Assembly: GCA_017525505.1 (NCBI GenBank)
Contig: JAFXSR010000033.1
Coordinates: 43,531-107,530, forward strand
Source of the DNA: Bacteroidales bacterium
GTDB taxonomy: Bacteria > Bacteroidota > Bacteroidia > Bacteroidales > WCHB1-69
Length of the DNA stretch: 64,000 nucleotides
Reading direction: 5' to 3'
Shown here: positions 12,388-45,955 of the stretch, one piece after another
Layout of the letters: every line of letters begins with the position of its first letter
Position numbering within the stretch: the first letter of the stretch is position 1
Position numbers and translations under genes: made by a program
The notes under the pieces: model-generated
What the model was told of the DNA's origin: nothing
Databases searched by the model: none
What the model saw: the letters and a program-made list of their open reading frames with translations, nothing else

Positions 12388-12415
12388 TTAGCACATTAGC
12401 ACATTAGCACATTGA
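12388..12415. repeat. 9-nt word array (TTAGCACAT x3)
   Basis: The sequence is attagcacattagcacattagcacattgac. The complementary words aatgtgctaatgtgccaatgg recur at about 38716-38737. Confidence 0.8.
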
Positions 12416-12429
12416 CTAATTATTTTTTG

Positions 12430-12437
12430 TATCTTTG
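12430..12437 (+). promoter_or_regulatory. TAnnTTTG promoter box for typA
   Basis: TATCTTTG lies 30 nt upstream of the ATG at 12467. Confidence 0.6.
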
Positions 12438-12466
12438 CACCCTTAAAAATAATACGTTCTCAGAAG

Positions 12467-14287
12467 ATGCAAAACATTAGAAATATTGCGATTATCGCTC
12501 ACGTTGACCATGGCAAAACCACCTTGGTTGACCGTATTTTATACCAAGCACACCTGTTTCGCGCCAACCAGCAGGTGCAGGAACTGGTACTGGACAACAA
12601 TGACTTGGAAAGAGAAAGAGGTATCACTATCCTTTCCAAGAATGTGTCGGTAAGATACAAGGACTGCAAGATTAATGTCATTGACACTCCGGGACACAGT
12701 GACTTCGGTGGCGAGGTAGAGCGTGTGCTGAACATGGCCGATGGCGTGTTGTTAGTGGTGGACGCTTTCGAAGGCCCCATGCCCCAGACTCGTTTTGTGA
12801 CCCAGAAAGCCATAGAATTGGGCCTCAAACCGATTGTGGTCATCAATAAGGTAGATAAGCCAAACTGCAATCCCGAACTCGCCCAGGAGGCCGTTTTTGA
12901 GCTTATGTTCAATTTGGGTGCCACCGACGACCAGCTGGATTTCCCCACGGTTTATGGTTCGGCCAAACAAGGCTGGATGGGCCCCGACTGGAAAACTCCG
13001 ACCAACGATATTTCTTATTTGTTAGACCAGATTATAGAGCATATTCCTGCCCCCAAAGTGGAAGAGGGTAGCTTGCAGATGATGATTTCCTCTTTGGATT
13101 ATTCCTCTTACGTGGGCCGAATTGCTGTAGGCCGTATCAGAAGAGGTACTCTGGAATGGGGCCAGAATGTGTCGTTGGTGAAACGCGACGGCAACATTGT
13201 TCCTTCAAAAGTCAAAGAATTGTATGTGTTTGAGGGCTTGGGCAAAGAGAAAATAAAAACTCCAGTGGAAGCTGGTGAGTTATGCGCCGTTCTGGGTCTT
13301 GACAATTTTGAGATCGGTGATACGGTGGCCGATGCTTTGGAACCCGAAGGTTTGCCGCCTATCAAGGTGGATGAGCCCACCATGAGCATGTTGTTCACTA
13401 TCAATAATTCCCCGTTCTTTGGAAAAGAAGGCAAATATGTGACTTCAAGACATTTGCGTGACCGTTTGTTCCTTGAGTTGGAGAAAAATTTGGCTTTGCG
13501 TGTGGAAGAGACCGGCTCACCCGATATGCTGAATGTGTTCGGACGTGGTGTTTTGCATCTGTCTGTGCTCATCGAGACCATGCGTCGCGAGGGATATGAG
13601 TTGCAGGTAGGTCAACCTCAGGTTATCATCAAGGAAATAGATGGCCAGAAATGCGAACCAGTGGAGCAGTTGACAGTGTTGGTGCCGGAAGAGTTTTCCA
13701 GCCGTGTCATTGACTTTGTGACCCGTCGCAAGGGTGATTTGATCAATATTGAGACAGTGAACGACCGTGTGCATTTGGATTTCCAGATTCCTTCCAGAGG
13801 TATTATCGGCTTGCGCAACCAGGTGCTGACTGCCACCGAGGGTGAGGCAATTATGTCACACCGTTTTATTGAGTTCCAGCCATGGAAGGGCGAAATCCAG
13901 GGCCGTCATGCGGGTGTGCTCATCGCCATGGAAACAGGCCAGAGTTATCCTTACGCCATCGACAAGCTGCAGGATCGTGGCCGTTTCTTTATCGACCCTA
14001 ACGACCAGGTGTATGCCGGTCAAGTCATTGGAGAACATATCCGTCCCGACGATTTGGTGGTGAATGTGTGCAAGTCGAAAAAACTGTCTAATATGCGTGC
14101 CGCCGGTAGTGACGAGAAAATGCACATTGCTCCTGCCATCAAGATGTCGCTGGAGGAATACATGGAGTACATCGGTCCCGATGAATATTTGGAAATCACT
14201 CCGCAATCACTCCGCCTCCGCAAGATTATTCTGGATGAGACTGAGCGCAAACGCCACAATATCAAGACACAACAACAAGCGCAATAA
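12467..14287 (+). CDS. typA: Translational GTPase TypA/BipA
   Basis: N-terminus NIAIIAHVDHGKTTLVDRIL, DTPGHSDFGGEVER and NKVDK G-motifs. It is 606 aa with an EF-G-like domain layout. Confidence 0.95.
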   Translation: MQNIRNIAIIAHVDHGKTTLVDRILYQAHLFRANQQVQELVLDNNDLERERGITILSKNVSVRYKDCKINVIDTPGHSDFGGEVERVLNMADGVLLVVDAFEGPMPQTRFVTQKAIELGLKPIVVINKVDKPNCNPELAQEAVFELMFNLGATDDQLDFPTVYGSAKQGWMGPDWKTPTNDISYLLDQIIEHIPAPKVEEGSLQMMISSLDYSSYVGRIAVGRIRRGTLEWGQNVSLVKRDGNIVPSKVKELYVFEGLGKEKIKTPVEAGELCAVLGLDNFEIGDTVADALEPEGLPPIKVDEPTMSMLFTINNSPFFGKEGKYVTSRHLRDRLFLELEKNLALRVEETGSPDMLNVFGRGVLHLSVLIETMRREGYELQVGQPQVIIKEIDGQKCEPVEQLTVLVPEEFSSRVIDFVTRRKGDLINIETVNDRVHLDFQIPSRGIIGLRNQVLTATEGEAIMSHRFIEFQPWKGEIQGRHAGVLIAMETGQSYPYAIDKLQDRGRFFIDPNDQVYAGQVIGEHIRPDDLVVNVCKSKKLSNMRAAGSDEKMHIAPAIKMSLEEYMEYIGPDEYLEITPQSLRLRKIILDETERKRHNIKTQQQAQ

Positions 14288-14317
14288 TAGGAGATAGGAC
14301 ATAGTGATTAGGTATAG

Positions 14318-14350
14318 TAGAGACGCACTGCCGTGCGTCTCTAAAAAAAT
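14318..14350 (+). terminator. Rho-independent terminator after typA
   Basis: tagagacgcac-tgcc-gtgcgtctcta is followed by aaaaaaatttt. Confidence 0.6.
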
Positions 14351-16307: not shown

Positions 16308-16450
16308 CGTGGAGATGTTAAGACGTGAAGACACTCACTCTGTTCGTTCGTCAAGACACTCGCTTCGCTCGTTCGTGGAGGTGTGAAGGCGGAAAAAACA
16401 GAATGTCGTCTTAACGAATGCACGAAGTGCATGTCTTCACGCCTTCACGT
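16308..16450. repeat. Inverted word-array hairpin downstream of ftcD
   Basis: Forward words (gttaagacgtgaagaca, ggaggtgtgaaggcg) sit at 16308-16392. Their complements (cgtcttaac, tgtcttcacgccttcacgt) sit at 16405-16450, around an aaaaaacagaat loop. Confidence 0.65.
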
Positions 16451-16497
16451 ATAAACGAATAAACAATTAAACATATCAACAATCCAACAAAAAATAG

Positions 16498-16523: not shown

Positions 16524-17480
16524 ATGGTAAGCAGACGTTATTTGAGAATCAAGGTAATGCAGGCCATCTTCGCCCATCAGATGAATGACAGGGAAGATGT
16601 GGTGGAAGGTGAGAAGAAACTGAACGACGCCATCCAGTCCTGCTATACCCTGTTCATCTATTTTTTCTCCTTGTTCTCGGCTATTTACCGCTATAGGGTA
16701 AATAAACTCGAGGATTTGAAAAACAAGATCAATCCCACCGAGGCGGATCTGAATCCCAATACCAAGTTCGTGGATAATAAGGTAATCTTGCAAATTGATG
16801 AGAATGTTACGCTGAACAAAAAGTTCAAGGAACTGAAAATCAACTGGGCCAACGATGTGGATTTCATTGTGCAGGTGAATCATGAAATAGTTGAATTACC
16901 CGAATATCAGCGCTACATGGCAAATCCTCAGCGAAGCTATAACGAGGATAAGGAATTGGTGCTGGCCATTGTGGAGAAAGTTTTTGTGGAGAGCAAGCTG
17001 ATCCATTGGTTTTTCGAGGAAAAGAATATCCACTGGTTCGACGATTACAACGAGGCTTTGCTGATGTTGTACAAAAATATCCAGCAGTTCAAGGAATCGA
17101 AGAAGGATAATTGCACTATCTCGACTTTGTTCAAGCCGGTGGCAGAAGGGGAAGAGAGTGACATGCAGTTCTATAAATGTCTCTACACCCTGACTTTGGC
17201 GCATAATAACGAGTACGAGGAAAGAATAGAGCAGAAGTTGCAGAACTGGGAGTTGGAGCGTATCATGGAGCTGGATATCATTCTGATGAAAATGGCGCTA
17301 TGCGAATTCACGGAGTTCCCCAGCATCCCGGTGAAAGTGACGATTAATGAGTACATTGAGTTGGCGAAGACCTACAGCTCACAAAAGAGCAAGGTTTTCA
17401 TCAACGGTATGTTGGACAAGATGGCGGTGGACTTGAAGGAAGAAGGGAAGCTGAATAAGATGGGGAGAGGGTTGGTGTGA
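16524..17480 (+). CDS. nusB: Transcription antitermination factor NusB (long Bacteroidota form)
   Basis: N-terminus SRRYLRIKVMQAIFAH. The C-terminal NusB core reads LERIMELDIILMKMALCEFTEFPSIPVKVTINEYIELAKTYSSQKSKVFINGMLDK. Confidence 0.85.
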   Translation: MVSRRYLRIKVMQAIFAHQMNDREDVVEGEKKLNDAIQSCYTLFIYFFSLFSAIYRYRVNKLEDLKNKINPTEADLNPNTKFVDNKVILQIDENVTLNKKFKELKINWANDVDFIVQVNHEIVELPEYQRYMANPQRSYNEDKELVLAIVEKVFVESKLIHWFFEEKNIHWFDDYNEALLMLYKNIQQFKESKKDNCTISTLFKPVAEGEESDMQFYKCLYTLTLAHNNEYEERIEQKLQNWELERIMELDIILMKMALCEFTEFPSIPVKVTINEYIELAKTYSSQKSKVFINGMLDKMAVDLKEEGKLNKMGRGLV

Positions 17481-17550
17481 GTGTAAAGTACATAGTGTAA
17501 AGTACATAGTGTAAAGTACATAGTATAAAGTATATAGTATAAAGTTTAGG
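17481..17550. repeat. 14-nt tandem word array x5 (GTGTAAAGTACATA and variants)
   Basis: It starts at the base after the nusB stop: three exact copies, then gtataaagtatata and gtataaagtttagg. Confidence 0.9.
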
Positions 17551-18819: not shown

Positions 18820-19341
18820 ATGAAAAAAATAGCTATTACGGGAGGTATAGGAACAGGTAAAACCTATATCTCCAAGAAGTTTGTGCAGATGGGTATTCCG
18901 GTGTTCTATGCGGACGAGGAAGCTAAAAAATGCTACGAGGACAAGGAAATTGTCGATACGATCCGTTCTTATTTTGGCACAGAGGTTTTTACAGAGGGAA
19001 GACTGGATTTCAGAAAGATGGCACGCTGTGTGTTCCAGAATCCCCAAAAGAGGGAAATTATCAACAAGATGATTCATCCCAGGGTGATGGGAATGTTCGA
19101 TGAGTGGGCCGAGGAGCAACATGCCCCGTCGGTGATGCTGGAATCCGCTATTGTGTACGAGAACGAATTGGAGAAGTTCTTCGATATGGTGATTGTGGTG
19201 GATGCCCCGCTGGAGGTGCGTTTGGAGCGTATCAAAAAACGGAACCCCAGCCTTACGGAGAAGGAAATCACCGACCGTATCAACGCACAGATGCCACAGG
19301 AGGAGAAATGCAGGCGGGCGGATATGGTAATCAAAAATTAG
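18820..19341 (+). CDS. coaE: Dephospho-CoA kinase
   Basis: The P-loop is MKKIAITGGIGTGKTYISKKF. It is 173 aa. Confidence 0.85.
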   Translation: MKKIAITGGIGTGKTYISKKFVQMGIPVFYADEEAKKCYEDKEIVDTIRSYFGTEVFTEGRLDFRKMARCVFQNPQKREIINKMIHPRVMGMFDEWAEEQHAPSVMLESAIVYENELEKFFDMVIVVDAPLEVRLERIKKRNPSLTEKEITDRINAQMPQEEKCRRADMVIKN

Positions 19342-19500
19342 TTGACAGTTGAAAACTGAAAGTTAATTACTCTTCTATTAGAATCGATGAAGGAGCGAGA
19401 GCAGAGACAAAGCACCCTTTGGCTATCCTGAGCGAGGAGGAGAGGGAGACGTAGCCTCCATCGGTAGCCGAAGGGCGGGGTAGTGACGCAAACATTACGG
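19342..19500 (+). repeat. Family-A composite element, copy 1 (word leader plus about 135 bp GC-hairpin module)
   Basis: gttgacagttgaaaactgaaagttaatt is followed by ...gaaggagcgagag...gagcgaggaggag...gtagcctcc...agccgaagggcggggtagtgacgcaaa. I aligned it by eye at about 80% identity to the reverse complement of 44741-44920. Confidence 0.75.
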
Positions 19501-21175: not shown

Positions 21176-21268
21176 AGTTGAAAGTTGAAAACGGAAAACT
21201 GAAAGTTGAAATTTAAATTCCCCTTATGTTAGAAGGGGTGTACGGAGGGCAGGGTAGTGATGCGAATA
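21176..21268 (+). repeat. Family-A element, short (internally deleted) copy
   Basis: It keeps the word leader gttgaaagttgaaaacggaaaactgaaagttgaaatttaaattcccctt and the terminus gggcagggtagtgatgcgaatataa. It lacks the roughly 85 bp core. Confidence 0.55.
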
Positions 21269-21281
21269 TAATTCAAATTAA

Positions 21282-35276: not shown

Positions 35277-35291
35277 ACAGACTATTTTTTG

Positions 35292-35299
35292 CAAAAATA
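35292..35299 (-). promoter_or_regulatory. TAnnTTTG promoter box for the dehydrogenase gene
   Basis: The reverse complement of caaaaata is TATTTTTG, 16 nt upstream of the ATG at 35276. Confidence 0.55.
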
Positions 35300-35329
35300 C
35301 GATTTTTTTCCGTGATATGATTCTGTAAC

Positions 35330-35500: not shown

Positions 35501-35536
35501 AACGGGAAATGATCCCATCAAAAAGTATGGGAAAAA

Positions 35537-36331
35537 TTATACCGCGACATCAGCTTTAATATGTGGGTCGGGATTGTAATTTTCCAAAGTAAAATCCTCA
35601 TACTTGAAATCAAAAATCGACTTCACCTCGGGATTGATCCGCATCGTTGGTAACGCCTTCGGGGTGCGGGTGAGCTGTAATTTCGCTTGTTCCACATGGT
35701 TGGAGTAGATGTGGGCATCACCGAAGGTATGCACAAACTCCTTGGCCTTGAGGCCGCACACTTGGGCTACCATCATCAGCAGGAGCGAGTAAGAGGCGAT
35801 GTTGAAGGGCACGCCCAGGAACACATCCGCGCTGCGCTGGTACAGCTGGCAGGAGATTTCCCCGTTGTTCACGTAAAACTGGAACAGCACATGGCAGGGT
35901 GGCAGGGCCATTTGGGGCACCTCGCCCACATTCCAGGAGCACACCATCAGCCGGCGCGAGTCGGGGTTGGTCTTGATCTGTTCGATGAGGTCCGAAATCT
36001 GGTCCACACTGCGGCCGTCGGCAGTTGCCCACGAACGCCACTGCTTGCCATAGACGGGTCCCAGGTCGCCGTTTTCGTCGGCCCACTCGTCCCAAATGGA
36101 TACTCCGTTGTCTTTCAGGTACTTGATATTGGTGTCGCCCTTCAGAAACCAGAGCAGTTCGTAGATGATGGAGCGCAGGTGCAGTTTTTTGGTGGTGAGC
36201 ACAGGGAAGCCGTCGGCCAAGTTGAAACGCATCTGGTGGCCGAAAACACTGTAGGTGCCGGTCCCGGTGCGGTCGCTCTTGAAGCTGTTTTCGTCTAAAA
36301 TCCGCTGTAAAAGGTCAAGATATTGTCGCAT
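35537..36331 (-). CDS. thyA: Thymidylate synthase
   Basis: [15 protein letters not shown]...[17 protein letters not shown]...[12 protein letters not shown]... is unmistakably ThyA. The start is moved to the canonical MRQYL. Confidence 0.95.
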
Positions 36332-36352
36332 GGTGATTGCCGTTAAAAGTTG

Positions 36353-36360
36353 CAAAGATA
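36353..36360 (-). promoter_or_regulatory. TAnnTTTG promoter box for thyA
   Basis: The reverse complement of caaagata is TATCTTTG, 22 nt upstream of the ATG at 36331. Confidence 0.6.
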
Positions 36361-36495
36361 CAATTTATTCCGATACAAAAAATCAAATTTTTGGAAAATG
36401 TTCGGGAAGAGGGAAGAAAAAAATGAAATTTTCAAAAAGTGGAAAAATTTGTAAAATTTGTTGACTTTTTTCTTGCTTTTCTCAAAATAAAAGTT

Positions 36496-36503
36496 TAATT
36501 TTG
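36496..36503 (+). promoter_or_regulatory. TAnnTTTG promoter box of the capsule (upxY) operon
   Basis: TAATTTTG is followed by a roughly 175 nt leader with several hairpins (ctttgc...gcaaag, atgggg...ccccat, cctgc...gcagg). Confidence 0.5.
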
Positions 36504-36686
36504 CCTTGCGAAAAATTTGTTTTTCCGAAAGGAGGGCGGTCACCTTTGCTTGGGTTCAGGCAAAGTCCGTATGGGGCTGAAAGAAAAGAAGTTCAACCCC
36601 CATAAATCACCTCCGGTTCCCTGCTGGTTTCCTACTGGCAGGAAAGAATGGTTTTAAATAAATTTTCGCAATAATTTATTGACAAT

Positions 36687-37211
36687 ATGACAGATGTGGG
36701 AAAGGCATGGTTTGCAATGAAAGTGTTTCAAAACAAGGTTTTTGAAATCGAAAGCTATTTGCAAGCCAAGGACACCGAGACTTATTTTCCGGTACGCTAT
36801 GAGGAGAAAACGATAGGTGGGGTGAAGAAAACGGTGCGCAAGCCGGTCATCACATCTCTGATTTTCTTCCGAACTTATTCCGAAAATCTGGCAGAAATTG
36901 AGAAGGACTTGAGTTCCAAGGTGGCCTTGTATCGCTATAGGAAATCACATCAGGTGGCTGTCATCCCCGATCGGGAGATGGATATCTTCAAGATGGTGAC
37001 CTCGGTGAGCAACAACAACTGGGATTATGTGGATGTGGCGGCCATGAGCTTCCGTCCCGAGGACCGTGTGCGGGTGATCGATGGGGAATTCAAGGGTGCC
37101 GAGGGCTATATCAAGCGCATCAAGGGCAACCGCCGACTCGTAGTTGCCATTGAGGGCGTCGTTGCCGTCGCCACTGCGTACATCCCGTCGTGCTACTTGG
37201 AGAAGTTGTGA
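36687..37211 (+). CDS. UpxY-family (NusG-like) capsule-operon transcription antiterminator
   Basis: The NGN-like N-terminus reads WFAMKVFQNKVFEIESYLQ...YFPV. The KOW motif is RVRVIDGEFKGAEGYIKRIKGNRRLVV. It is the first gene of the polysaccharide locus. Confidence 0.8.
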   Translation: MTDVGKAWFAMKVFQNKVFEIESYLQAKDTETYFPVRYEEKTIGGVKKTVRKPVITSLIFFRTYSENLAEIEKDLSSKVALYRYRKSHQVAVIPDREMDIFKMVTSVSNNNWDYVDVAAMSFRPEDRVRVIDGEFKGAEGYIKRIKGNRRLVVAIEGVVAVATAYIPSCYLEKL

Positions 37212-37315
37212 TAGGTTTGGGTTGCTCTCACCCCACACTTACGTGCGGGGTTACTGAGATATCGCCTCTTCGAGGCTCAAGCGGAACGGCTTCGCCGTAA
37301 TGTATATATCACAGT

Positions 37316-37480
37316 GTCACCCTTTCGCGGCAGGCACAATACAACATCAGGGCAAGAGTACCCCGTGCCGCGAGGATATATGTGGCATCCCGTACCAGGG
37401 GTTTCACCCCTGTCTGTAGTCTGGTTGGCCCTACGGGCCTCGACTCGCCCGGCAATGCATGTGTGCGGGAAGATAGGCAC
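37316..37480 (+). repeat. Family-B GC-hairpin element, copy 2
   Basis: cctttcgcggcagg...ccccgtgccgcgagg...caggggtttcacccctg tctgtagtctggtt ggccctacgggcc. Further hairpins sit upstream at 37215-37300 (ccccacacttacgtgcgggg, gcctcttcgaggc). Confidence 0.75.
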
Positions 37481-37550
37481 ACGGAGGCAAAAAGCTATGG
37501 CGCTGCGTGCGGTGGCCATGCCGATTGGCGAGGAGCCTGTGCGGTGGCAC

Positions 37551-37640
37551 AACAGTTGACAGTTAACAGTTGACAGTTAACAGTTGACAATTGACAGTTG
37601 ACAATTGACAGTTGAAAACTGAAAACTGAAAGTTGACAGG
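37551..37640 (+). repeat. Word array (GTTGACAG / TTAACAG / TTGAAAAC / TGAAAG)
   Basis: The sequence is gttgacagttaacagttgacagttaacagttgacaattgacagttgacaattgacagttgaaaactgaaaactgaaagttgacagg. Confidence 0.9.
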
Positions 37641-37660
37641 ATTCAAGTTTCAGGTTACAG

Positions 37661-37861
37661 TTCAAAATCCATAATCCATAATCCAAAATCTCTTCTAACC
37701 TTCTCACCCTCTCACCTTCCTAACCCTCCTCACCTTCCTAACCCTCCTCACCTTCCTAACCCTCCTCACCTTCCTCACCTTCCTAACCCTCCTAACCCTC
37801 CTAACCTTTACCCCCTCCTAACCCTCCTAACTTTAACCCCCCCCTACCCCCACCCCCTCCC
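37661..37861 (+). repeat. 201-nt G-free, C-rich word array (CCTYCTMAC units) upstream of wza
   Basis: I read it base by base and found no G between 37661 and 37861. Only one G (37862) occurs before the wza ATG. The units read ccttcctaaccctcctcac... Confidence 0.9.
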
Positions 37862-37883
37862 GAAATAAAAAAAACACCATATC

Positions 37884-38714
37884 ATGAAAAAACACCTATT
37901 CTTTATCATTGCCGCAGTGATGCTGCTGGCATCGTGCAACACCACGAAGAAGATCACTTATTTTCAGGATATCCAGAATTATACGGACACGACCAAGTCA
38001 GTGGCGCCTCCGGCTCCGGAAATCCGCTTGCGTCCTGATGACAAGATTTCAGTCATCGTCAACAGCAGAGACCCCGAGTTGACGAATATGTTCAATTTGG
38101 CCTATGTGACGCGTACATTGGGAAGTACAAGTGAAAACATTTCAACGGGAACACAGCATGGAACCTCCGGCTATGTTGTCAAAAGAGACGGTACCATCGA
38201 TTTTCCTGTATTGGGTTCGATAATAGCCGCGGGCAAAACCCGCGAAGAGCTCTCGGCTTATATCAAAAACGAGTTGATTAGCCAGGGTTTGGTCAGCGAT
38301 CCTATTGTGACGGTGGAGTTTATCAACCTGCAGTTTTCCGTAATGGGTGAGGTGAAAAAGCCAGGTTCTTACAATATTAACCGAGATTACATTACCCTTC
38401 TGGATGCTTTGTCCATGGCTGGAGATATGACCATCAGCGGTAAGCGTGAGAATGTGCTGGTATTACGCCCGGACTCTATAGGCAAGCTCACTGCTTATAC
38501 GGTGGATATGCGTTCTTTTGCCGAGGTCCAGAATTCACCGGTTTATTATATCCATCAGAACGATTACATCTATGTGGAGCCTAACAGGAAGAAAGCCAAC
38601 GAGTCAACAGTCAATGCCAACACGGTTCAGTCCGCCGCGTTCTGGATTTCCGTCGCTTCTTTCCTCGCCTCTATCGCCTCCACGATTTCCGTCATCGTGA
38701 CGAGAGCAAAATAA
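37884..38714 (+). CDS. wza: Polysaccharide export outer-membrane lipoprotein (Wza-like)
   Basis: The lipobox is LLASCNT. The Poly_export motif region reads LRPDDKISVIV...DGTIDFPVLGSI.AAGKT..EL, followed by an SLBB-like segment. Confidence 0.85.
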   Translation: MKKHLFFIIAAVMLLASCNTTKKITYFQDIQNYTDTTKSVAPPAPEIRLRPDDKISVIVNSRDPELTNMFNLAYVTRTLGSTSENISTGTQHGTSGYVVKRDGTIDFPVLGSIIAAGKTREELSAYIKNELISQGLVSDPIVTVEFINLQFSVMGEVKKPGSYNINRDYITLLDALSMAGDMTISGKRENVLVLRPDSIGKLTAYTVDMRSFAEVQNSPVYYIHQNDYIYVEPNRKKANESTVNANTVQSAAFWISVASFLASIASTISVIVTRAK

Positions 38715-38804
38715 TTAATGTGCTAATGTGCCAATGGAATTAGTTAATTAGCAAATGAATTTTAATCTGTCAATTGTCAACTGTCAATTATCAATTAAAT
38801 AAAA

Positions 38805-41330
38805 ATGCAAGAAAATCAAAACGCAACAGCGAACAACATTGAACAGCAAGGAGAGCAGGCCATAGACTTGAAGGCGATATTTTACCTTTGCCTTTCCAAT
38901 TGGTACTGGTTTCTGATTTCAGTCATCTTGTGTCTGGCCATAGCCACTTTTTATCTGAAGAAAACCATCCCGGTCTATACCCGTTCAGCCAAAGTGCTGG
39001 TGAAATCCGACAACAAGGGTCACTCAGCCATGAATGTCAGCGATTTCTCGGACCTGGGGCTTTTCAGCAGTGGGGTCAGCATCAACAATGAGCTGCTCAC
39101 CATCCAATCCCTCGACAATGTGGAGGAGGTGGTGCTCCGTTTGCAATTGGATAAAAACTACACTTCCGACGGTCTGCTTCATCCTGTTTTGTTGTACGGA
39201 GAAAATTTGCCCGTCAAGGTGGAGATGCCCGGCATTGACGATCAGGCGGTTCTTTCCTTTGATATTAAACTCCAGGGAACCAAGTTCACCCTTTCCGAAT
39301 TCATGTTGGGTAAGGAAGAGAAAACGGGCTCCGTTACCGCCAAGCTGGGCGATACTGTTGCCACACCGGTGGGTGTTCTTTGTGTGGTTCCCACAGAGTT
39401 TTTCAATCCCAAAAGTCAGTACAAAACCATTCACGTACAGCGTTCCTCTATTGGAAGTACGGCACGAACCTACGTTGGCAAGCTTACGGTGGCGTTGGCG
39501 GCCAAACAGACCGATGTGATGAGCTTGACGGTGAATGACATTTCCAAACAAAGGGCCGACGATTTTATCAATATGCTCATTGCCGTGTATAATGGCAATT
39601 GGCTGAAAGACAAGAACCAGGTAATGGTGAGTACTTCCATGTTTATCAATGACCGTTTGCAGATCATTGAAAAGGAATTGGGCTCGGTGGACGATGACAT
39701 TTCCTCATACAAAAGTGCCAATCTCATGCCCGATGTGGGAGCGGTATCCAGCATCTGGTTGAATCAGAACACGGTTACGACCAACCGAATTCAGGATTTG
39801 AACAACCAGATTGCCATGACCCGCTATGTGCGCAACTATCTGATCAATATGAAGAAGAAAGACCAGCTTCTGCCGGTAAACTCGGGTATTGGCAGTGGAC
39901 AGATCGAAGGTCAGTTAGCGGAATATAACGCCATGATGCTGAAAAGAAACAACCTGGTGGCCCATAGTAGCGAGCAAAGTCCTTTGGTGCTCGAAATGGA
40001 TGACAAGCTGGCCACTATGCGCCAGGCCATCGTTGCCACACTCGACAGCCAGTTGGAAAGCCTCAACACCCTCTTGCAGAGTTTCCAAGGCACTGGACGA
40101 CAAATCAACTCCCGCCTGGCTGCCAGCCCGGGACAGGCCAAGTACTTGTTGTCGGTGGAACGTCAGCAGAAGGTGAAGGAGTCGCTGTATTTGTTCCTCT
40201 TGCAGAAACGTGAGGAAAACGAGTTGTCGCAGGCTTTTACCGCTTACAATACCCGTGTGATTGAGAAACCCAATGGCTCTCCCAATCCTACCAAGCCCAA
40301 AAAGTCTCTCATCCGTTTGGTTGCTGTCATCCTGGGTTTGGCTATTCCGGGCTTTATCCTCTTTATGATCGATTACCTGAACACCACCGTGCGTAGCCGC
40401 AAGGATTTGGAGAAACTGAGTGTGCCGCTCGTTGGCGAGATTCCGTTGGTCTATAATCCGGAGGATGCCAAGAAAAACAGAAAGAAGAAAAAAGAGATAC
40501 GGCATAATGGACAGAGCAATCCTGAGGGTTTCGCCAAGACCGTGGTGGTGAAACATGGCAGCCGTAATGTCATTAACGAGGCTTTCCGTGTGTTCCGTAC
40601 CAATCTGGAGTTCATGACCAAGAACAAGGAGAACAATGTCTTTATGTTCACCTCCTTCAATCCGGGTTCCGGTAAGTCTTTTATCGCCATCAACTCGGCC
40701 ATCAGCTTGGCCATCAAAAAGCGCAAAGTGCTGGTTATCGACGGTGACTTGCGCCATGCCTCCCTGTCCGCCTACATTTTCTCCCCAAAGAAGGGTATCG
40801 CCAATTATTTGGGTCGCCAGGAGGAGGATGTTCATAAATTGATTATCCAGAGTGATGATTATCCTTGTCTGAGCTACCTGCCCGTGGGTACCATTCCGCC
40901 TAACCCCACTGAGTTGCTAGAGGATGAGCGTTTCGGTGAGTTAATCAAAATATTGAAGCAGGAGTATGACTATGTGATGATTGACTGTCCGCCTATCGAC
41001 ATTGTGGCCGACCCGCAGATTATCAACAAGTATGTAGATCGTACCGTCTTCGTGGTGCGTGCCGGTTTGATGGAGCGCAGCCTTATTCCCGAACTGGAGA
41101 AATTATACACGCAGCACAAATATGTCAACTTGTGCATGTTGCTCAACGGCACTACCAGCTCCGATGGCCGCTATGGCTACCGTTACGGTTACCGCTATGG
41201 CTATCGTTATGGTTACCGCTATGGCTACAAGTACGGCTATGGCTATCACAATGCCTACGGCAAGCACAGCGCCTACGGTGGGTATTATCATGAGGATGAT
41301 GAGACGGAGGAGGGGGGAAGTGGAAAGTAG
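38805..41330 (+). CDS. wzc: Polysaccharide co-polymerase / tyrosine autokinase (Wzc-like)
   Basis: It has a Wzz-type N-terminal TM helix and periplasmic coiled coil. The Walker A is TSFNPGSGKSFIAINSA and the Walker B is VMIDCPP. The C-terminal Tyr cluster is GRYGYRYGYRYGYRYGYRYGYKYGYGYHNAYGKHSAYGGYY. Confidence 0.9.
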   Translation: MQENQNATANNIEQQGEQAIDLKAIFYLCLSNWYWFLISVILCLAIATFYLKKTIPVYTRSAKVLVKSDNKGHSAMNVSDFSDLGLFSSGVSINNELLTIQSLDNVEEVVLRLQLDKNYTSDGLLHPVLLYGENLPVKVEMPGIDDQAVLSFDIKLQGTKFTLSEFMLGKEEKTGSVTAKLGDTVATPVGVLCVVPTEFFNPKSQYKTIHVQRSSIGSTARTYVGKLTVALAAKQTDVMSLTVNDISKQRADDFINMLIAVYNGNWLKDKNQVMVSTSMFINDRLQIIEKELGSVDDDISSYKSANLMPDVGAVSSIWLNQNTVTTNRIQDLNNQIAMTRYVRNYLINMKKKDQLLPVNSGIGSGQIEGQLAEYNAMMLKRNNLVAHSSEQSPLVLEMDDKLATMRQAIVATLDSQLESLNTLLQSFQGTGRQINSRLAASPGQAKYLLSVERQQKVKESLYLFLLQKREENELSQAFTAYNTRVIEKPNGSPNPTKPKKSLIRLVAVILGLAIPGFILFMIDYLNTTVRSRKDLEKLSVPLVGEIPLVYNPEDAKKNRKKKKEIRHNGQSNPEGFAKTVVVKHGSRNVINEAFRVFRTNLEFMTKNKENNVFMFTSFNPGSGKSFIAINSAISLAIKKRKVLVIDGDLRHASLSAYIFSPKKGIANYLGRQEEDVHKLIIQSDDYPCLSYLPVGTIPPNPTELLEDERFGELIKILKQEYDYVMIDCPPIDIVADPQIINKYVDRTVFVVRAGLMERSLIPELEKLYTQHKYVNLCMLLNGTTSSDGRYGYRYGYRYGYRYGYRYGYKYGYGYHNAYGKHSAYGGYYHEDDETEEGGSGK

Positions 41331-41383
41331 ATAGTAGAAAGTATAAAGTATAAAGTAGATAGTAGAAAGTAGAAAGTAGATGG
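41328..41383 (+). repeat. 7-nt word array AGTAKAW x8
   Basis: The array agtagat agtagaa agtataa agtataa agtagat agtagaa agtagaa agtagat begins within the wzc stop codon. Confidence 0.9.
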
Positions 41384-41384
41384 G

Positions 41385-41771
41385 TTAGGGGGTGGATAGT
41401 TGATTGTTCAATTTTTTGCGAAGGCCTGAGAGCATTTTTGCTATTTCAGTTATCTGTGGACGCAATTCGTTGAGTTGCGCTTCAGTTATGTAAGCCAGGT
41501 CCGCTGCTGTTTGTAGTTCGCTAAAGACTTCCATTAACGAGCCAAATGATATCTCAAGAAAGTGTATTTTTTCTTTGACAGATTGGCGTCCGCTTCCTTC
41601 CGCAAGATTAGCTGTAATGGAAATAGCTGCTCTACGCACCTGATTTCCAAGTCCATAACGCTCTTCAATAGGGAATATACGCTGCAAGCGATAAACATCT
41701 GCAACCAAAGATCTACATTTCTTATAAACTTCTAACCTTTCAAAAGCAAAACTTCTCATAGAATTCATCAT
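41385..41771 (-). CDS. Four-helix-bundle protein (23S rRNA intervening-sequence / Avd family)
   Basis: FERLEVYKKCRSLVADVYRL...FPIEERYGLGNQVRRAAISITANLAEGSGRQSVKEKIHFLEISFGSLMEV is the family signature. The start is moved to MMNSMRSF. It is antisense to the capsule operon. Confidence 0.85.
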   Translation of the reverse strand: MMNSMRSFAFERLEVYKKCRSLVADVYRLQRIFPIEERYGLGNQVRRAAISITANLAEGSGRQSVKEKIHFLEISFGSLMEVFSELQTAADLAYITEAQLNELRPQITEIAKMLSGLRKKLNNQLSTP

Positions 41772-41825
41772 ATACCAAAATGTAATAAACCAAACTATAA
41801 ACGAAATAAAACAAAAAAAATTATA

Positions 41826-41893
41826 AACCATAAACAAAAAAATCTATAAACCATAAACTATAAACTATATACTATATACTATATACTTTACAA
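41826..41893 (+). repeat. 7-nt word array (CCATAAA / CTATAAA / CTATATA), approximate complement of 41328-41383
   Basis: The sequence is aaccataaacaaaaaaatctataaaccataaactataaactatatactatatactatatactttacaac. Confidence 0.8.
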
Positions 41894-41894: not shown

Positions 41895-42572
41895 ATGTTA
41901 TTCTCCAAACCAATCAACACCTACCTCAAAGGCTTCACCGACCATCACTCCCATATATTGCCCGGAGTGGATGATGGAGTGAAGAAGATGGAGGTATCCC
42001 TGCAGGTGCTGGAAAAGTACGAGCAGTTGGGTATCGCTGAGGTGTGGTGTACCCCGCATACCATGGAAGATATTCCCAATACTACGGAAGGTCTCAAAAG
42101 CCGTTTTGCGGAGCTGTGCGAGGCCTACAAGGGTCCCATCAAGCTGCATCTGGCTTCTGAATATATGATGGACGGCCTTTTCGAGGAACGTCTGGAAGAG
42201 GGTAATCTGCTGACTTTGGGCGAGGAGGGCAACCAGCTTTTGGTGGAGACCTCTTATTTCACTCCGCCCATCGATATGGACACTATCTTGCGCCGCATCC
42301 GTCAGAAGGGTTATTTCCCAGTGCTGGCTCATCCCGAGCGTTATATATACATGGATAAAGAACAGTATCATGAACTCAAGGACGAGGGTATCCGTTTTCA
42401 GCTCAACCTATCTTCCATTGCCGGTGCTTACGGTCCCGATGTCAAAGCCAAGGCCCTCTGGCTCCTCAAGAAACAATACTACGACCTTGCCGGCTCCGAT
42501 CTCCACTCGCTGAGAAACGTTTCCTTCTGGGAGGCACGAGCTCCGCGGGCCCTGAGGAAGTTTTTGGGATAG
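41895..42572 (+). CDS. PHP-family protein-tyrosine phosphatase (CpsB/YwqE-like)
   Basis: The N-terminal metal motif is DHHSHILPGVDDG, with LAHPERY later. It sits next to the Wzc-like kinase. Confidence 0.85.
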   Translation: MLFSKPINTYLKGFTDHHSHILPGVDDGVKKMEVSLQVLEKYEQLGIAEVWCTPHTMEDIPNTTEGLKSRFAELCEAYKGPIKLHLASEYMMDGLFEERLEEGNLLTLGEEGNQLLVETSYFTPPIDMDTILRRIRQKGYFPVLAHPERYIYMDKEQYHELKDEGIRFQLNLSSIAGAYGPDVKAKALWLLKKQYYDLAGSDLHSLRNVSFWEARAPRALRKFLG

Positions 42573-42632
42573 AAGGATAGAAGGTTAGAAAGGTTAGAAA
42601 GGTTAGGAGGGTTAGGAGGGTTAGGAGGGTTA
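42573..42632 (+). repeat. 8-9-nt word array GGWTAGRAR x8 (part of a 98 nt C-free tract, 42553-42650)
   Basis: The array ggatagaa ggatagaa ggttagaaa ggttagaaa ggttaggag x4 begins at the phosphatase stop. It supplies the last codons of the antisense gene. Confidence 0.9.
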
Positions 42633-43004
42633 GGAGGGTAAAGTGTTTAGCTTTTTTTTGAAAGATGCTCTTAATCCTATTAGCATTTTAGATACATATT
42701 CGAATTCAGGCTTCATTTTGTTTACATTACTGATCGAGATATAATTCAAATCAACAGCTATTAGTAATTGACAATAGCATTCCATTAAAGAACCATAAGC
42801 AATTTCTATAAAGTGGATTTTTTCTTTAACTGATGTTCTACCACTTCCTTCTGCAATATTTGATGGAACAGAAACTATTGACCTTCTGATTTGATCGCAT
42901 AACGCATACCGTTCTATAGACGGAAATTCTTTTAAGGTATCATACACTGAAACAACAAGCTTTTTGGATACTTGCCAAACTTCTAAACTTTCAAACGAGA
43001 ACAT
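42630..43004 (-). CDS. Four-helix-bundle protein (23S rRNA intervening-sequence / Avd family), second copy
   Basis: The family signature is FESLEVWQVSKKLVVSVYDTLKEFPSIERYALCDQIRRSIVSVPSNIAEGSGRTSVKEKIHFIEIAYGSLMEC. Its own TATTTTTG box is at 43040-43047 (minus). Confidence 0.85.
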   Translation of the reverse strand: MFSFESLEVWQVSKKLVVSVYDTLKEFPSIERYALCDQIRRSIVSVPSNIAEGSGRTSVKEKIHFIEIAYGSLMECYCQLLIAVDLNYISISNVNKMKPEFEYVSKMLIGLRASFKKKLNTLPS

Positions 43005-43039
43005 ACTTTCTAAATTTTCAAATGAATAATAAATAATTG

Positions 43040-43047
43040 CAAAAATA
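43040..43047 (-). promoter_or_regulatory. TAnnTTTG promoter box for the second four-helix-bundle gene
   Basis: The reverse complement of caaaaata is TATTTTTG, 36 nt upstream of the ATG at 43004. Confidence 0.5.
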
Positions 43048-43065
43048 CAAAAAAATAAAAATAAC

Positions 43066-43212
43066 CCTCCTAACCCTCCTAACCTTTCTAACCTTCCTAA
43101 CCTTCCTAACCCTCCTAACCCTCCTAACCCTCCTAACCTTCCTAACCTTCCTAACCTTCCTAACCCTCCTAACCCTCCTAACCCTCCTAACCTTCCTAAC
43201 CCTCCTAACCCA
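43066..43212 (+). repeat. 9-nt word array CCTYCTAAC x about 17, inside a 204-nt G-free tract (43040-43243)
   Basis: The units read ccctcctaaccctcctaacctttctaaccttcctaacc.... It is the reverse complement of the arrays at 42573-42632, 44607-44730 and 45825-45912. There is no G until the ugd ATG. Confidence 0.9.
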
Positions 43213-43241
43213 TAAACACTAAACTATAAACATCAAACAAT

Positions 43242-44609
43242 ATGAAAATCTCCGTCGCAGGTACCGGCTATGTGGGTATGAGCATCGCCACTCTACTCGC
43301 TCAACATAATGAAGTAACCGCTGTGGACGTGGTTCCAGAGCGTGTTGACATGGTGAACCATAAAAAGTCTCCTATCCAGGATGACTATATTGAAGACTTT
43401 TTGGCCCACAAACCCTTGACTATCAGTGCTACCCTTGACCAGGAGGCGGGCTACCGCGAGGCCGACTTTGTGGTCATTGCGGCCCCTACCAATTACGACC
43501 CCCAGAAGAATTTCTTCGACACCTCGGCAGTAGAGGCGGTCATTGATGCCGTGCTGAAGGTGAACCCCGATGCGGTTATGGTCATCAAGAGCACCATTCC
43601 GGTGGGATATACCCGTTCGCTGTATGTCAAATATTACAGGCAAGGGGCTAAGAAATTCAACCTGTTGTTCAGCCCCGAGTTCCTGCGCGAGAGCAAGGCC
43701 CTGTACGATAACCTTTATCCCTCTCGTATCATTGTGGGTACCCCGAAAATGATGAAGGGCAAGGACTATGAGGAGGAAAACGAAGCTATCAAGGCACTCA
43801 CCGATATCGACTGGATCAGCCAGAAAGCCCATCAGTTTGCCGGTCTTCTTGTGGAAGGCGCCATCGGCCCCTCTCCAGACACCTGCTCACCCTCTAACCC
43901 TCTCACGCCCTCTCAACCCAACAAAGGCATTTCCGTCCTCTTCATGGGCATGAAGGAAGCCGAGGCGGTGAAGCTTTTCGCCAACACTTACCTGGCTCTC
44001 CGTGTAAGCTATTTTAATGAGTTAGATACCTATGCCGAGGTAAAAGGTCTTGACCCTCAGTCTATTATAGAAGGGGTTGGGCTCGATCCCCGTATTGGTT
44101 CGCATTACAACAACCCCAGTTTCGGTTATGGCGGCTACTGTTTGCCCAAGGATACCAAGCAGCTGCTGGCCAACTATGCCGATGTGCCTCAGAACATGAT
44201 GAGCGCCATCGTGGAAAGCAACAGAACCCGCAAGGACTTTATTGCCGACCAAGTGCTCAAGATGGCAGGTTATTACGCTTATAGCGAGAATAATCAATTC
44301 AAAAATCAGGGTTCAGAATTCAAAGTTCCCACCATTGGTGTCTTTAGATTGACGATGAAATCTAACAGCGACAATTTCCGTCAGTCGGCCATCCAGGGCA
44401 TCATGAAGCGCATCAAGGCCAAGGGGGCCAACGTTATCATCTACGAGCCCACTTTGGAGAACGGTACCATGTTTTTTGGCAGCCTTATTATCAACGACCT
44501 TGTCCAGTTCAAAACCCAGAGCCAGGCTATCATCGCCAACCGTTACGATGCCTGCCTGGATGATGTGAAAGAGAAGGTTTATACGAGGGATATTTTCAAA
44601 AGGGATTAG
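43242..44609 (+). CDS. ugd: UDP-glucose 6-dehydrogenase
   Basis: The Rossmann N-terminus is [21 protein letters not shown]. The catalytic Cys context is [18 protein letters not shown], with [28 protein letters not shown] nearby. Confidence 0.9.
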
Positions 44610-44730
44610 GTTAGAGAGGTTAGGAAGGTTAGGAAGGTTAGAGGGTGAGAAGGTGAGAAGGTTAGAAAGGTTAGGAAGGTTAGAAAGGTTAGGAAGGTTA
44701 GGAAGGTTAGGAAGGTTAGAAGAGATTATG
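44607..44730 (+). repeat. Word array GGTTAGRAR / GGTGAGAA (part of a 154 nt C-free tract, 44598-44751)
   Basis: ggttagagaggttaggaaggttaggaaggttagagggtgagaaggtgagaaggttagaaagg... begins at the ugd stop codon. Confidence 0.9.
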
Positions 44731-44740
44731 GTTTATATTT

Positions 44741-44920
44741 GCGTCACTACCCCGGCCTTCGGCCACCCGTTGGAGGCTACGCCTCCTTTCTCCTCCTCGC
44801 TCGGGAAAGCTCAATCAAGCTTGGCTTTCCTCTCGCTCCTTCGTCGAATCTAAAAGAAGGGGAATTAACTTTCAGTTTTCAGTTTTCAACTGTCAACTGT
44901 CAATTATCAACTATCAACTA
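44741..44920 (-). repeat. Family-A composite element, copy 2 (inverted), including its word leader
   Basis: tttgcgtcactaccccggccttcggccacccgttggaggctacgcctcc...ctcctcgctc...ctctcgctccttcgtcgaatc...aattaactttcagttttcagttttcaactgtcaac is the reverse complement of the copy-1 pattern. Confidence 0.75.
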
Positions 44921-44922
44921 AT

Positions 44923-45813
44923 ATGAAAGGCATCGTTCTCGCCGGAGGTTCCGGCACCAGGTTATATCCTATTACCAAGGGTGTGAGCAAACAGTTGCTG
45001 CCCATTTACGATAAACCTATGGTATATTATCCTATCAGTGCGTTGATGCTGGCGGGGATTAGGGATATTCTGATTATCAGCACCCCTTATGATTTGCCCG
45101 GTTTCAAACGGCTTTTGGGTGATGGCAGCGACTACGGTGTGCATTTCGAGTATGCCGAGCAGCCCAGTCCCGACGGTTTGGCTCAGGCTTTCATCATTGG
45201 CGAGAAGTTCATCGGTGACGATTGTGCCTGCCTGGTGTTGGGTGACAATATATTCTATGGTAACGGCTTTACGACATTGTTGCTCAATGCCGTAAAAGAC
45301 GCGGAGCACAACAAAAAGGCTACCGTTTTTGGCTACTGGGTGGCCGATCCCGAACGCTACGGTGTGGCGGAGTTTGACAAGCAGGGCAATTGCCTGAGTA
45401 TCGAGGAGAAACCGAAAGAACCTAAGAGCAACTATGCCGTGGTGGGGCTCTACTTCTATCCCAACAAGGTGGTGAATGTGGCCAAGACCATCAAACCTTC
45501 CGCGCGTGGCGAGTTGGAGATTACCACCGTCAACCAGCGTTTTCTGGAAGATGGAGAGTTGAAGGTGCAGGTCTTTGGTCGTGGTTTTGCCTGGCTGGAC
45601 ACGGGTACGCATGATTCATTGGCCGAGGCTTCCATTTTTGTGGAGACCATCGAGAAACGTACAGGATTGAAAATCGCCTGCCTTGAGGGCATCGCCTACC
45701 GCAACGGCTGGATCAGCGAGGAAAAGATGCGTCAGCTGGCCCAGCCGATGCTGAAGAACCAATACGGCCAGTACCTGCTGAAGGTGATTGACGAGATGAG
45801 CAGTGAGCGGTGA
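44923..45813 (+). CDS. rfbA: Glucose-1-phosphate thymidylyltransferase
   Basis: [37 protein letters not shown] is the canonical RmlA N-terminus. Confidence 0.95.
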
Positions 45814-45955
45814 GCGGTGAGGCCTGAGGTTAGGAGGGTTAGGAGGGTTAGGAGGGTTAGGAAGGTTAGGAAGGTTAGGAAGGTTAGGAAGGTTAGGAAG
45901 GTTAGGAGGTTACACGGTTAGAAGGTTAGAAGGTGAAAGGGGTTTAGGAGGTTTA
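45814..45955 (+). repeat. Word array (GTGAGCG, GGTTAGGAR x12, GGTTAGAA, GGTTTAGGA)
   Basis: The words start inside the last rfbA codons (agtgagcggtgagcggtgagg). A C-free stretch spans 45825-45912. Confidence 0.9.

Follow-up and report, generated by a model that had tools for sequence, protein, structure and literature searches.

Three features of bacterial genomes are known, each with its function unexplained: intervening sequences (IVSs) of 23S rRNA genes that carry S23p open reading frames (ORFs), intergenic arrays of heptamers, and PF05635 genes located inside cas operons. In Coxiella, the protein ORF lies in the loop of the IVS, whose 28-bp terminal stem is cut by RNase III, and two to three tandem GACAGAT heptamers, in a number that varies between strains, are found upstream of the ORF (PMC4990558). 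Intergenic TAACTGA repeats are reported from Beggiatoaceae, cyanobacteria and a few Bacteroidetes (MacGregor 2015, PMC4679880). Here we describe arrays of short tandem words in a stretch of 64,000 nucleotides from a Bacteroidales bacterium (contig JAFXSR010000033.1, positions 43,531 to 107,530; hereafter the window, whose own numbering is used). Arrays of purine- and G-rich words are called G-type, and arrays of the reverse-complementary words, poor in G and rich in C, are called C-type. In pairs, the arrays make up the arms of long, quasi-palindromic spacers between genes, which are built like 23S rRNA IVSs. In the complete form, a small PF05635/TIGR02436 gene lies between the arms, with a G-type array upstream and a C-type array starting in the TAA stop codon of the gene. 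In open-access texts we found neither a link of PF05635/S23p genes to flanking inverted tandem arrays nor IVS-like cassettes between protein genes, and the association therefore appears to be new, its three components being already known separately.

The only minus-strand genes of the capsule operon are the two that lie between such arms. IVP1 (41385-41765) and IVP2 (42630-43004) are PF05635/TIGR02436 genes encoding Avd-like four-helix-bundle proteins, named “23S rRNA intervening-sequence protein”, and are 48% identical to each other. The PF05635 match has an E-value of 1e-34, the TIGR02436 scores are 114-115 bits against a cut-off of 24, and the nearest solved structure is XCC0516 (PDB 2GSC, E 2e-17). 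PADLOC gives no anti-phage defence match for these proteins. Each gene is bracketed by an inverted pair of arrays, which in the gene sense is purine-type upstream and pyrimidine-type downstream, the latter beginning in the TAA stop. For IVP2, the upstream arm at 43062-43242 (minus strand) contains 16.7 copies of TAACCCTCC followed by 4.4 copies of ATAAACA. This arm is enclosed in a 204-nt run without G (43040-43243) that ends at the ugd start, and a promoter-like TATTTTTG motif is present at 43040-43047 on the minus strand. The downstream arm, with 7.7 copies of GAAGGTTAG at 42567-42639 (plus strand), overlaps the cpsB stop and also holds the stop of IVP2, within TAACCCTCC on the minus strand. 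RNA of the whole cassette (42560-43245) is predicted to form a long-range stem of about 60 bp, at -180 kcal/mol and z = -10.7 relative to shuffles. In the IVP1 cassette, the purine-type upstream arm consists of AAACTAT/TATACTA words at 41792-41887 (minus strand; C-type on the plus strand), ending 8 nt before the cpsB start. Its pyrimidine-type downstream arm is composed of nine copies of AAGTAGA at 41318-41380 (plus strand, on which it is G-type) and overlaps the wzc stop.

Much of this anatomy is shared with the large 23S rRNA IVSs that carry an S23p/PF05635 ORF (Coxiella, Leptospira, Xanthomonas and, in this work, Azospirillum): a protein in the loop, a terminal stem, and purine-rich heptamers upstream. 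Sporadic distribution and a heptamer number that varies by strain are further likenesses. A PF05635 (S23p) ORF is found in the loop of both cassettes, and complementary termini form a stem, as seen in IVP2 and in the excess of own-arm pairing among 62 cassettes described below, the IVP1 arms being no better than shuffles. Unlike these IVSs, which lie in helix 25 or 45 of a 23S rRNA gene, the window cassettes lie between protein genes (among wzc, cpsB and ugd), and such cassettes are mostly found in polysaccharide operons. An Rfam scan of the whole window returned a tRNA-Cys only, with no rRNA and no curated family matching the arrays or the hairpin elements. Furthermore, where these IVSs have a unique stem of about 28 bp, the arms here are long arrays of as many as 17 tandem units, and the cassettes occur in both orientations relative to the host operon. 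A genuine 23S rRNA IVS on plasmid AZO_p2 of Azospirillum lipoferum (L187) has arms of GGACGGA/TGACAGA heptamers and their complements.

Using Tandem Repeats Finder and direct reading of the letters, we found about 20 tandem arrays in the window, with units of 7, 8, 9 or 14 nt (some 14-nt units being two heptamers) and up to 16.7 copies. At scores of at least 50, the program reports 29 rows covering 1279 nt, compared to a mean of 0.2 rows and 7 nt in 20 local shuffles. Nearly all arrays listed in the original prediction, which was made from the letters of this stretch, are thus present (about 20 against about 0.2 in shuffles). For two of its entries, 19342-19370 and 26700-26716, related words do occur, but only two or three of them, below the threshold of the program. 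A third, 16308-16450, is not a word array but mainly a quasi-palindrome, with arms at 16317-16357 and 16408-16448. The view that few word families are used and recur in complementary orientations agrees with direct reading, each family being found in both orientations in the window. It was also correct that arrays start in the stop or last codons of nusB, wzc, cpsB (the phosphatase), ugd and rfbA, and this extends to other genes: stop codons of coaE, the C69 peptidase gene, a glycosyltransferase gene and wza are likewise overlapped or abutted. The density is highest in the capsule locus, as had been proposed. What the prediction missed is the pairing of opposite-type arms in one spacer, the two minus-strand genes between arms, and the link to 23S rRNA IVSs.

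As arrays, these sequences are close to the cyanobacterial short tandemly repeated repetitive (STRR) heptamers and to the TAACTGA repeats. Like long simple sequence repeats (SSRs) and STRR-type repeats, they consist of a 5-11-nt unit repeated head to tail beyond chance length. The 7-9-nt intergenic units, an orientation biased with respect to start codons, and a frequent end 1-3 nt before the start are common to both, as are several word families per spacer and the taxa involved, and the TCAACTG words found here contain the same core, AACTG. The STRR and TAACTGA repeats are described, however, as direct repeats in one orientation, with no link to complementary partner arrays or PF05635 genes.

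A fixed polarity governs the spacers. In all capsule-operon spacers that hold both types, G-type words come first after the stop and C-type reverse complements come last before the next start, an order seen in upxY-wza, wza-wzc, wzc-cpsB, cpsB-ugd, ugd-rfbA and the spacer before xseA. The leading arm is made of G-type words on either strand, for example GGTTAGGAR, GTTGACA, AGTAGAA or TGAGCGG. In 358 kb of related rumen Bacteroidales loci, 65 G-rich and 43 C-rich arrays follow stops, compared to 28 and 79 that precede starts (odds ratio 4.3, p = 6e-7, array-level test on the pooled set). Orientation relative to gene ends is thus not random, contrary to the random orientation that the original prediction had named as a possible refutation. 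A cruder test on the GC skew of spacer halves gave p = 0.35 for the window alone (n = 20) and was significant only in the pooled rumen set; it was replaced by the array-level test. Among 133 after-stop arrays, 59 overlap the stop or begin within 5 nt of it. Intergenic or gene-edge positions account for 302 arrays and ORFs for 79, in sequence that is 78% coding, a ratio that is only indicative because the loci were picked for having arrays. Stops in all three frames of after-stop arrays are a weak effect (odds ratio 1.8, p = 0.03).

Composite modules also occur in both orientations, such as the junction GGTTAGAAGAGATTATGG. Read as its reverse complement, 37551-37861 agrees in order with 44608-44920, both running [GGTTAGG]n, AGAGATT, [ATGGATT]n, a spacer, [TTTCAGT]n and [CAACTGT]n. 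A search for local inverted repeats in spacers at a high threshold found almost nothing, because the arms are degenerate and a gene splits the spacer, and a k-mer version gave a weak polarity signal (24 versus 13).

The same architecture is found elsewhere. Around 78 complete PF05635 homologues from metagenomes, GGTTA has a frequency of 1.2 per 50 nt immediately upstream, compared to 0.05 within the ORF, and TAACC one of 1.7 immediately downstream, compared to 0.09, both about 20-fold differences. At least three G-type words upstream together with at least three C-type words downstream are present in 43 of the 78, and the reverse arrangement in two. The stop is TAA in 67 of these genes, and TAACC in 41. 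A first measure of the inverted versus direct similarity of flanks (p = 0.09) was confounded by cassettes that have C-type arrays upstream as well, and was replaced by these positional counts and by a test of own versus cross arms. In the latter, covering 62 cassettes, own arms are more complementary than arms taken from other cassettes (median 15.5 versus 9.0, permutation p < 1e-4), and the own arm is the best partner in 16. The word families concerned vary widely, and include GGTTAAA, GGTTATT, GTTTAAG, CGATAA, GTGAGTTA, GTAGGGA and AGGAGTC, among others. Because 29 of 51 cassettes have the G-array directly against the ATG, most such genes would depend on read-through transcripts that contain both arms. 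Genes for sugar nucleotides and glycosyltransferases are enriched among the neighbours.

Outside this set, heptamers of purine type precede most of 13 PF05635 genes on cyanobacterial plasmids, and complementary ones of pyrimidine type follow them, at sites that include cas6/cas4, cmr2/cmr3 and the junction between ribonucleotide reductase subunits. On plasmid loci L175, L180 and L181, arrays and PF05635 genes within cas6-cas4 or cmr2-cmr3 could pass for degenerate CRISPR. A Saprospiraceae contig, which came up incidentally in a word scan, has two cassettes with different words: GGTTAGAAG in 7.8 copies, a gene and CTAACCCCT in 4.8 copies in the first, and GAGATTAG, a gene and seven copies of CTTCTAAT in the second. 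Scanning 185,579 species genomes for three copies of GGTTAGRAR gave 83 stretches, concentrated in ruminant-gut Bacteroidales, where three genomes have around 10 loci each, with single matches across many other phyla. Nearly every PF05635 gene that was examined sits within such arrays. The converse does not hold, and only four of the roughly 20 window arrays adjoin a PF05635 gene. Gene-less hairpins and single arms far outnumber complete cassettes in this rumen Bacteroidales lineage, a further difference from 23S rRNA IVSs. They may be derivatives of cassettes, as miniature elements are of transposons, or may instead represent a more general element into which genes settle.

Gene and arms stay together as they evolve and move to other sites. 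Two cassettes, encoding proteins of 93% identity (pN/pS 0.05, pS 0.67), occupy different junctions in their two species, and both have kept TTGACAR/YTGTCAA arms. More generally, word similarity tracks protein similarity (Mantel r = 0.38, p = 0.0005), with IVP2 paired to GGTTAGGAR, IVP1 to AGTAKAW and the type found in L171 and L174 to TTGACAR. These observations raise the possibility that the arrays are iterated DNA or RNA binding sites of the cognate four-helix-bundle protein, a putative pentameric nucleic-acid binder of the Avd/XCC0516 family, one word per subtype, through which the protein would regulate or mobilise the cassette and the gene-less arrays. Arm complementarity would then be a by-product of symmetric binding sites. 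The correlation of word and subtype points in this direction, as does the retention of words under saturated synonymous sites in a constrained protein. The G-array of IVP2 is upstream of the promoter-like motif, where a regulator would bind, and the closest structure, XCC0516, is a homopentamer (PMC4990558). Co-inheritance of a gene with its flanks explains the correlation equally well, however, and TTGACAR-type arrays are abundant in the window, where a matching protein subtype is not encoded. Avd-family proteins are also not known to bind specific sequences, and on balance, from what the sequences suggest, we regard cognate binding as an unlikely explanation.

Turnover is visible at orthologous junctions. 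Between wzc and cpsB, the window has a minus-strand cassette with AGTAKAW arms, locus L171 has a plus-strand cassette with TTGACAR arms, and locus L169 has a gene-less hairpin of the form [GGTTAG]3-loop-[CCTCCTAA]3 that folds better than shuffles (z = -3.1). Locus L088 (isolate RGIG10078) is orthologous to window positions 32757-40090, with 80-90% identity, and in its upxY-wza spacer the words follow one another as in the window, at 1-3 copies where the window has 9-15. Array content at this orthologous site is thus related, contrary to the unrelated content that had been named as a possible refutation. Five metagenome contigs, with 99.9% identity to the window, encode the exact Ugd protein. 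In two of these strain contigs the array at 43062-43242 is 54 nt (six units) longer, a difference that is uncertain because short reads do not assemble a 150-nt array fully reliably. A 263-kb contig (L001, 9780-10000 compared to window 43005-43241) joins ugd-rfbA-GmrSD to a different upstream gene, a metallophosphatase gene. The switch point lies inside a C-type array of 3.5 units, and is either a real rearrangement or an assembly chimera.

Four roles had been suggested for the arrays in the original prediction. The footprint of a mobile process is the best supported: at one and the same junction, related species can have the array-flanked PF05635 cassette, lack it, or have it inverted or replaced. 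Transcript insulation and Rho loading would be consistent with array polarity and with the G-free tracts of 200 nt. A role as recombination substrate rests on the single ambiguous contig junction just described. In that last scenario, arrays would act as portable homology, and recombination within a family would shuffle, delete, invert or import polysaccharide genes, generating capsule diversity. This fits with the capsule locus being densest in arrays and with the enrichment of sugar-nucleotide and glycosyltransferase genes near cassettes. Related species differ in the genes between arrays: L171 and L173 have a glucosamine isomerase gene that the window and L169 lack. L001 switches exactly within a C-type array, and beyond the last array come the GmrSD defence gene and fragments of a dehydrogenase pseudogene. 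At the L001 junction, however, the assembly may be chimeric, and no inversion of segments flanked by inverted arrays was found in the four other strain contigs. Moreover, the same architecture occurs in cas operons, ribonucleotide reductase junctions and rRNA, where shuffling is unexpected. We therefore consider capsule shuffling very unlikely as the explanation of the arrays.

In a further reading, the arrays are ordinary long SSRs produced by replication slippage, building up neutrally between genes, where selection is weak, with words set by a polymerase bias of the lineage and small genes there by chance. Sporadic lineages rich in 5-11-nt repeats, mostly intergenic heptamers, are on record (Mrazek 2007, as summarised in PMC4679880). 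The six-unit difference between strains and the copy-number difference at the orthologous spacer are as expected from slippage, as are the majority of arrays lacking a gene and arm mismatches without an RNA-specific signature. Slippage does not predict the inverted arm pairing specific to each cassette, the 43:2 polarity around PF05635 genes, or the orientation bias at gene ends. Neither does it predict composite junctions such as GGTTAGAAGAGATTATGG conserved in both orientations, or the recurrence of one architecture, built from unrelated words, in Bacteroidota, in Cyanobacteria and in the rRNA IVS of an alphaproteobacterium. Slippage is largely refuted as a full account, and we give it little credence. 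The original prediction was also right that the arrays are neither CRISPR nor ordinary microsatellites, given their contiguous 7-14-nt units and complementary arms.

REP (repetitive extragenic palindromic) sequences and BIMEs (bacterial interspersed mosaic elements) of enterobacteria and the Correia elements of Neisseria are small intergenic inverted-repeat elements in operons that fold in mRNA and affect transcript stability, the Correia elements being cut by RNase III. They are likewise numerous, and are mosaics of few motifs in alternating orientation. They have no sequence relation to the arrays, however, and are unique palindromes or terminal inverted repeats, with neither a PF05635 gene nor a G-first, C-last rule. 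As to miniature inverted-repeat transposable elements, which have terminal inverted repeats, a target-site duplication and many near-identical copies, inverted arms and many copies are seen here, and the filled and gene-less junctions compared allowed no target-site duplication or fixed ends to be defined. Avd, the accessory protein of diversity-generating retroelements, is a nucleic-acid-binding pentamer with a homologous four-helix-bundle fold. The NCBIfam Avd model matches the IVP proteins weakly (E 2e-8 and 1e-5, below its cut-off), TIGR02436 and PF05635 being the best models. A diversity-generating retroelement was rejected, as the scanned ORFs of the window contain no reverse transcriptase domain, no pair of template and variable repeats lies beside the genes, and the neighbours are wzc, cpsB and ugd. 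A CRISPR array has repeats of about 24-48 nt separated by unique spacers of similar length and was also rejected, the units here having no spacers. Intrinsic terminators were discarded since C-type arms precede A-rich sequence and a start codon, not a T run; a classical terminator is present at 24003-24031.

As an overall explanation of the arrays we favour, with moderate confidence, the arms of IVS-like, self-insulating cassettes. Slippage would make arrays grow and shrink until neighbouring stop or start codons are reached and sometimes overrun. In a read-through transcript of the whole spacer, the G-arm would be made first and would probably pair with the C-arm, giving a long double-stranded stem in which the C-arm is sequestered, and which, by analogy with rRNA IVSs, may be a substrate of RNase III. 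Outward transcription beginning within the cassette would instead yield an unpaired, untranslated, G-free and C-rich tract, the kind of RNA that loads Rho. With its fixed polarity, the arrangement would be strand-symmetric, outward transcripts from the cassette carrying a G-poor, C-rich tract on either strand. The cassette would thus be self-insulating and hence tolerated within operons, and a difference in copy number between its arms could tune read-through into the next gene. This reading would account for the polarity, the arm pairing and the tolerance inside operons. In the outward flanks of 59 cassettes, C makes up 22-25% and G 12-14%, compared to 19% C and 22% G in control 3′ flanks.

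Several points weigh against this account, which is drawn from anatomy and from the analogy with rRNA IVSs. The AU-rich arms of IVP1 pair in the minimum-energy fold, yet with z = -0.25 they do no better than shuffles, and several window spacers have a G-arm and a C-arm from different word families, so no local pairing is possible. With an average of only 22-25% C, the outward tract of many cassettes bears a weak resemblance to Rho-loading RNA. Arm mismatches show no excess of G.U-compatible positions on either strand (34 versus 33 of 237 non-Watson-Crick positions); the complementarity could therefore stem from DNA-level template switching in quasi-palindromes or from common descent instead of selection on RNA, and template switching would be just as able to maintain the arms. 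No PF05635 gene is found in any of about 35 further rumen Bacteroidales loci with arrays. Finally, the loci were selected by similarity to proteins or words of the window, which biases the sample.

A narrower alternative takes only the C-rich, G-free arrays before wza and ugd as functional, as Rho-dependent attenuators in the leader of the capsule operon, countered by the UpxY antiterminator from the gene just upstream, with the remaining arrays as unrelated by-products. Immediately before wza and ugd there are indeed G-free runs of 201 and 204 nt with 45-56% C, positions 36687-37211 encode a NusG paralogue of the UpxY family, and a C-rich, G-poor tract precedes wza in four species with differing words and copy numbers. 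This attenuator model leaves the G-type arrays, the arm pairing and the PF05635 genes unexplained, however, and the same polarity is found at loci without UpxY. Judged from sequence features, we think it improbable. At the other end of the range, PF05635 proteins and their flanking heptamer or nonamer arrays might be one widespread, mobile, self-insulating intercistronic element, each subtype recognising its own word and spreading with or without the gene, of which 23S rRNA IVSs and a share of STRR/TAACTGA-type repeats would be special cases. We offer this generalisation as a speculation that is unlikely to hold.

The architecture described here brings together three long-unexplained features: the origin and mobility of 23S rRNA IVSs, the function of PF05635/TIGR02436 proteins, and the intergenic heptamer arrays of cyanobacteria, giant sulfur bacteria and some Bacteroidetes. 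It spans at least three phyla. The arrays sit in capsule loci, where expression differences between strains matter biologically, and they reach into annotated gene ends, including stop codons and one signal peptide. In addition, array spacers break short-read assemblies and may be mistaken for CRISPR-like or noise repeats.

The other arrays of the window are as follows, in order of position. Upstream of the promoter and start of typA, 3.4 copies of ATTAGCAC at 12387-12413 (minus strand) are C-type on the plus strand, the word being the reverse complement of the one at 38716. The spacer at 16308-16482, after the FTCD stop, holds the quasi-palindrome mentioned above, followed by A-rich, G-poor ATAAACA-type words and the nusB promoter. 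A G-type 14-mer, AGTGTAAAGTACAT (4.7 copies, 17480-17545, plus strand), begins in the TGA stop of nusB and fills the 79-nt spacer. G-type TTGACAG/TGAAAAC/TGAAAGT words at 19342-19363 (plus strand) come straight after the coaE stop and are followed by a hairpin element (element A, below). Next, 5.1 copies of AGTTGAA (21176-21211, plus strand, G-type) lie 2 nt past the stop of the C69 peptidase gene. Two copies of CTATGAGC-type words at 26700-26716 (plus strand) are C-type when read along the divergent mutS. The stretch at 27056-27161 (minus strand, C-type on the plus strand), which precedes the promoter and start of a PMT_2 gene, contains CTCACATCTCCATG (3.4 copies), GCTCACC (7.7) and CTCATAG (2).

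Three G-type repeats share 32274-32354 (plus strand): GTTGACA (4.4 copies), which covers the last eight codons and the stop of the glycosyltransferase gene, AGGTGAGA (2.5) and CAGTTGA (2.3). A gene-less hairpin follows at 32529-32659, with a G-type arm of GGTTACACGG and GGTTTAGAAGG at 32529-32598 and a complementary C-type arm of CCTAAACC and CCGTGTAACC at 32606-32659. By Pfam and NCBIfam, the window encodes type IX secretion domains, DUF1573 and the UpxY antiterminator, then wza, wzc, cpsB, ugd and rfbA, which marks the genome as one of Bacteroidota. Within the upxY-wza spacer, 9.1 copies of ACAGTTG and 2.7 of TGAAAAC (37552-37631, plus strand, G-type) come first. They are followed at 37661-37861 (minus strand, C-type; repeat rows at 37666-37831) by 3.6 copies of AATCCAT and 15.6 of CTAACCTTC, in a 201-nt run without G that ends 22 nt before the wza start. 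In the wza-wzc spacer, TAATGTGC (2.6 copies, 38716-38736, plus strand, G-type) begins 1 nt past the wza stop, and TGTCAAT (4.1 copies, 38767-38796, minus strand, C-type) ends 8 nt before the wzc start.

After ugd, 13 copies of AGGTTAGAA at 44608-44721 (plus strand), G-type and without any C, begin in the TAG stop and lead to a conserved junction, AGAGATTATGG, and element A. TTTCAGT (2.7 copies) and TCAACTA (5 copies) at 44870-44920 (minus strand, C-type) end 2 nt before the rfbA start. Both repeats at 45797-45934 (plus strand) are G-type, namely TGAGCGG (3.6 copies), which holds the TGA stop of rfbA, and AGGTTAGGA (12.4 copies). The coding-region array predicted at 61431-61475 is real: three copies of the 14-mer CTGAAAGTTGAAAA at 61432-61473 (plus strand) are C-type in the sense of a minus-strand gene, and encode the hydrophobic core (h-region), FNFQFSTFSFQLS, of the signal peptide of a type IX-secreted FG-GAP protein. 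Being translated as h-region, this array has been absorbed into the 5′ end of the gene.

Besides the arrays, other interspersed elements were found. Element A is a hairpin-rich element of about 155 nt with inverted copies at 19340-19495 and 44735-44891 (82% identical) and a partial copy at 21215-21270. Each full copy is attached to a TTGACAG/TGAAAAC array, and there is no Rfam match. Element B is found at 35337-35487 and 37318-37465 (77% identical), and also in L088 (3150-3260 and 5380-5440) and L169 (2100-2200). It has hairpins of the form CCAGGGG(C/T)TT(T/C)(G/A)CCCCTGTCTGT, and in related species these hairpins themselves occur in several tandem copies. At 26776-27010 (region 26721-27059), a structured element of about 238 nt is 93% identical to a copy in the Bacteroidales metagenome-assembled genome (MAG) RGIG9334 (L009, 307-543). 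It is flanked by 50-nt direct repeats (26721-26770 and 27010-27059, 92% identical), and looks like an insertion with a long duplication.

Past the last array of the capsule locus, a GmrSD-type defence nuclease (PADLOC HEC-06/Orf5, E 4e-203) is encoded within 45956-47975. It has fragments of a UDP-glucose-dehydrogenase-like pseudogene on both sides, DGKCFLKDV at 45956-45983, and MINVGIIGCGFVGG... and ...GGKCFPKDV... at 47692-47974. Downstream of the capsule locus, an IS630-like transposase is present as two ORFs (HTH_32 and DDE_3) at 48887-50058, the domains being taken from the gene calls of L001. A protein of 3500 residues, rich in fibronectin type III domains, is encoded at 1744-12246.

Lastly, three loci from Nitrosomonas, Thauera and a Pseudomonadales MAG (L020 2390-2525, L043 1490-1650 and L070 3430-3590) match the GGTTAGGAA pattern and were rejected as a different, conserved element. 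In these, a G+C-rich core of about 80 nt lies between (TTCCTAACC)3 and (GGTTAGGAA)3, with extra single copies nearby. This element is conserved across genera, looks iteron-like and seems unrelated to the Bacteroidales arrays.

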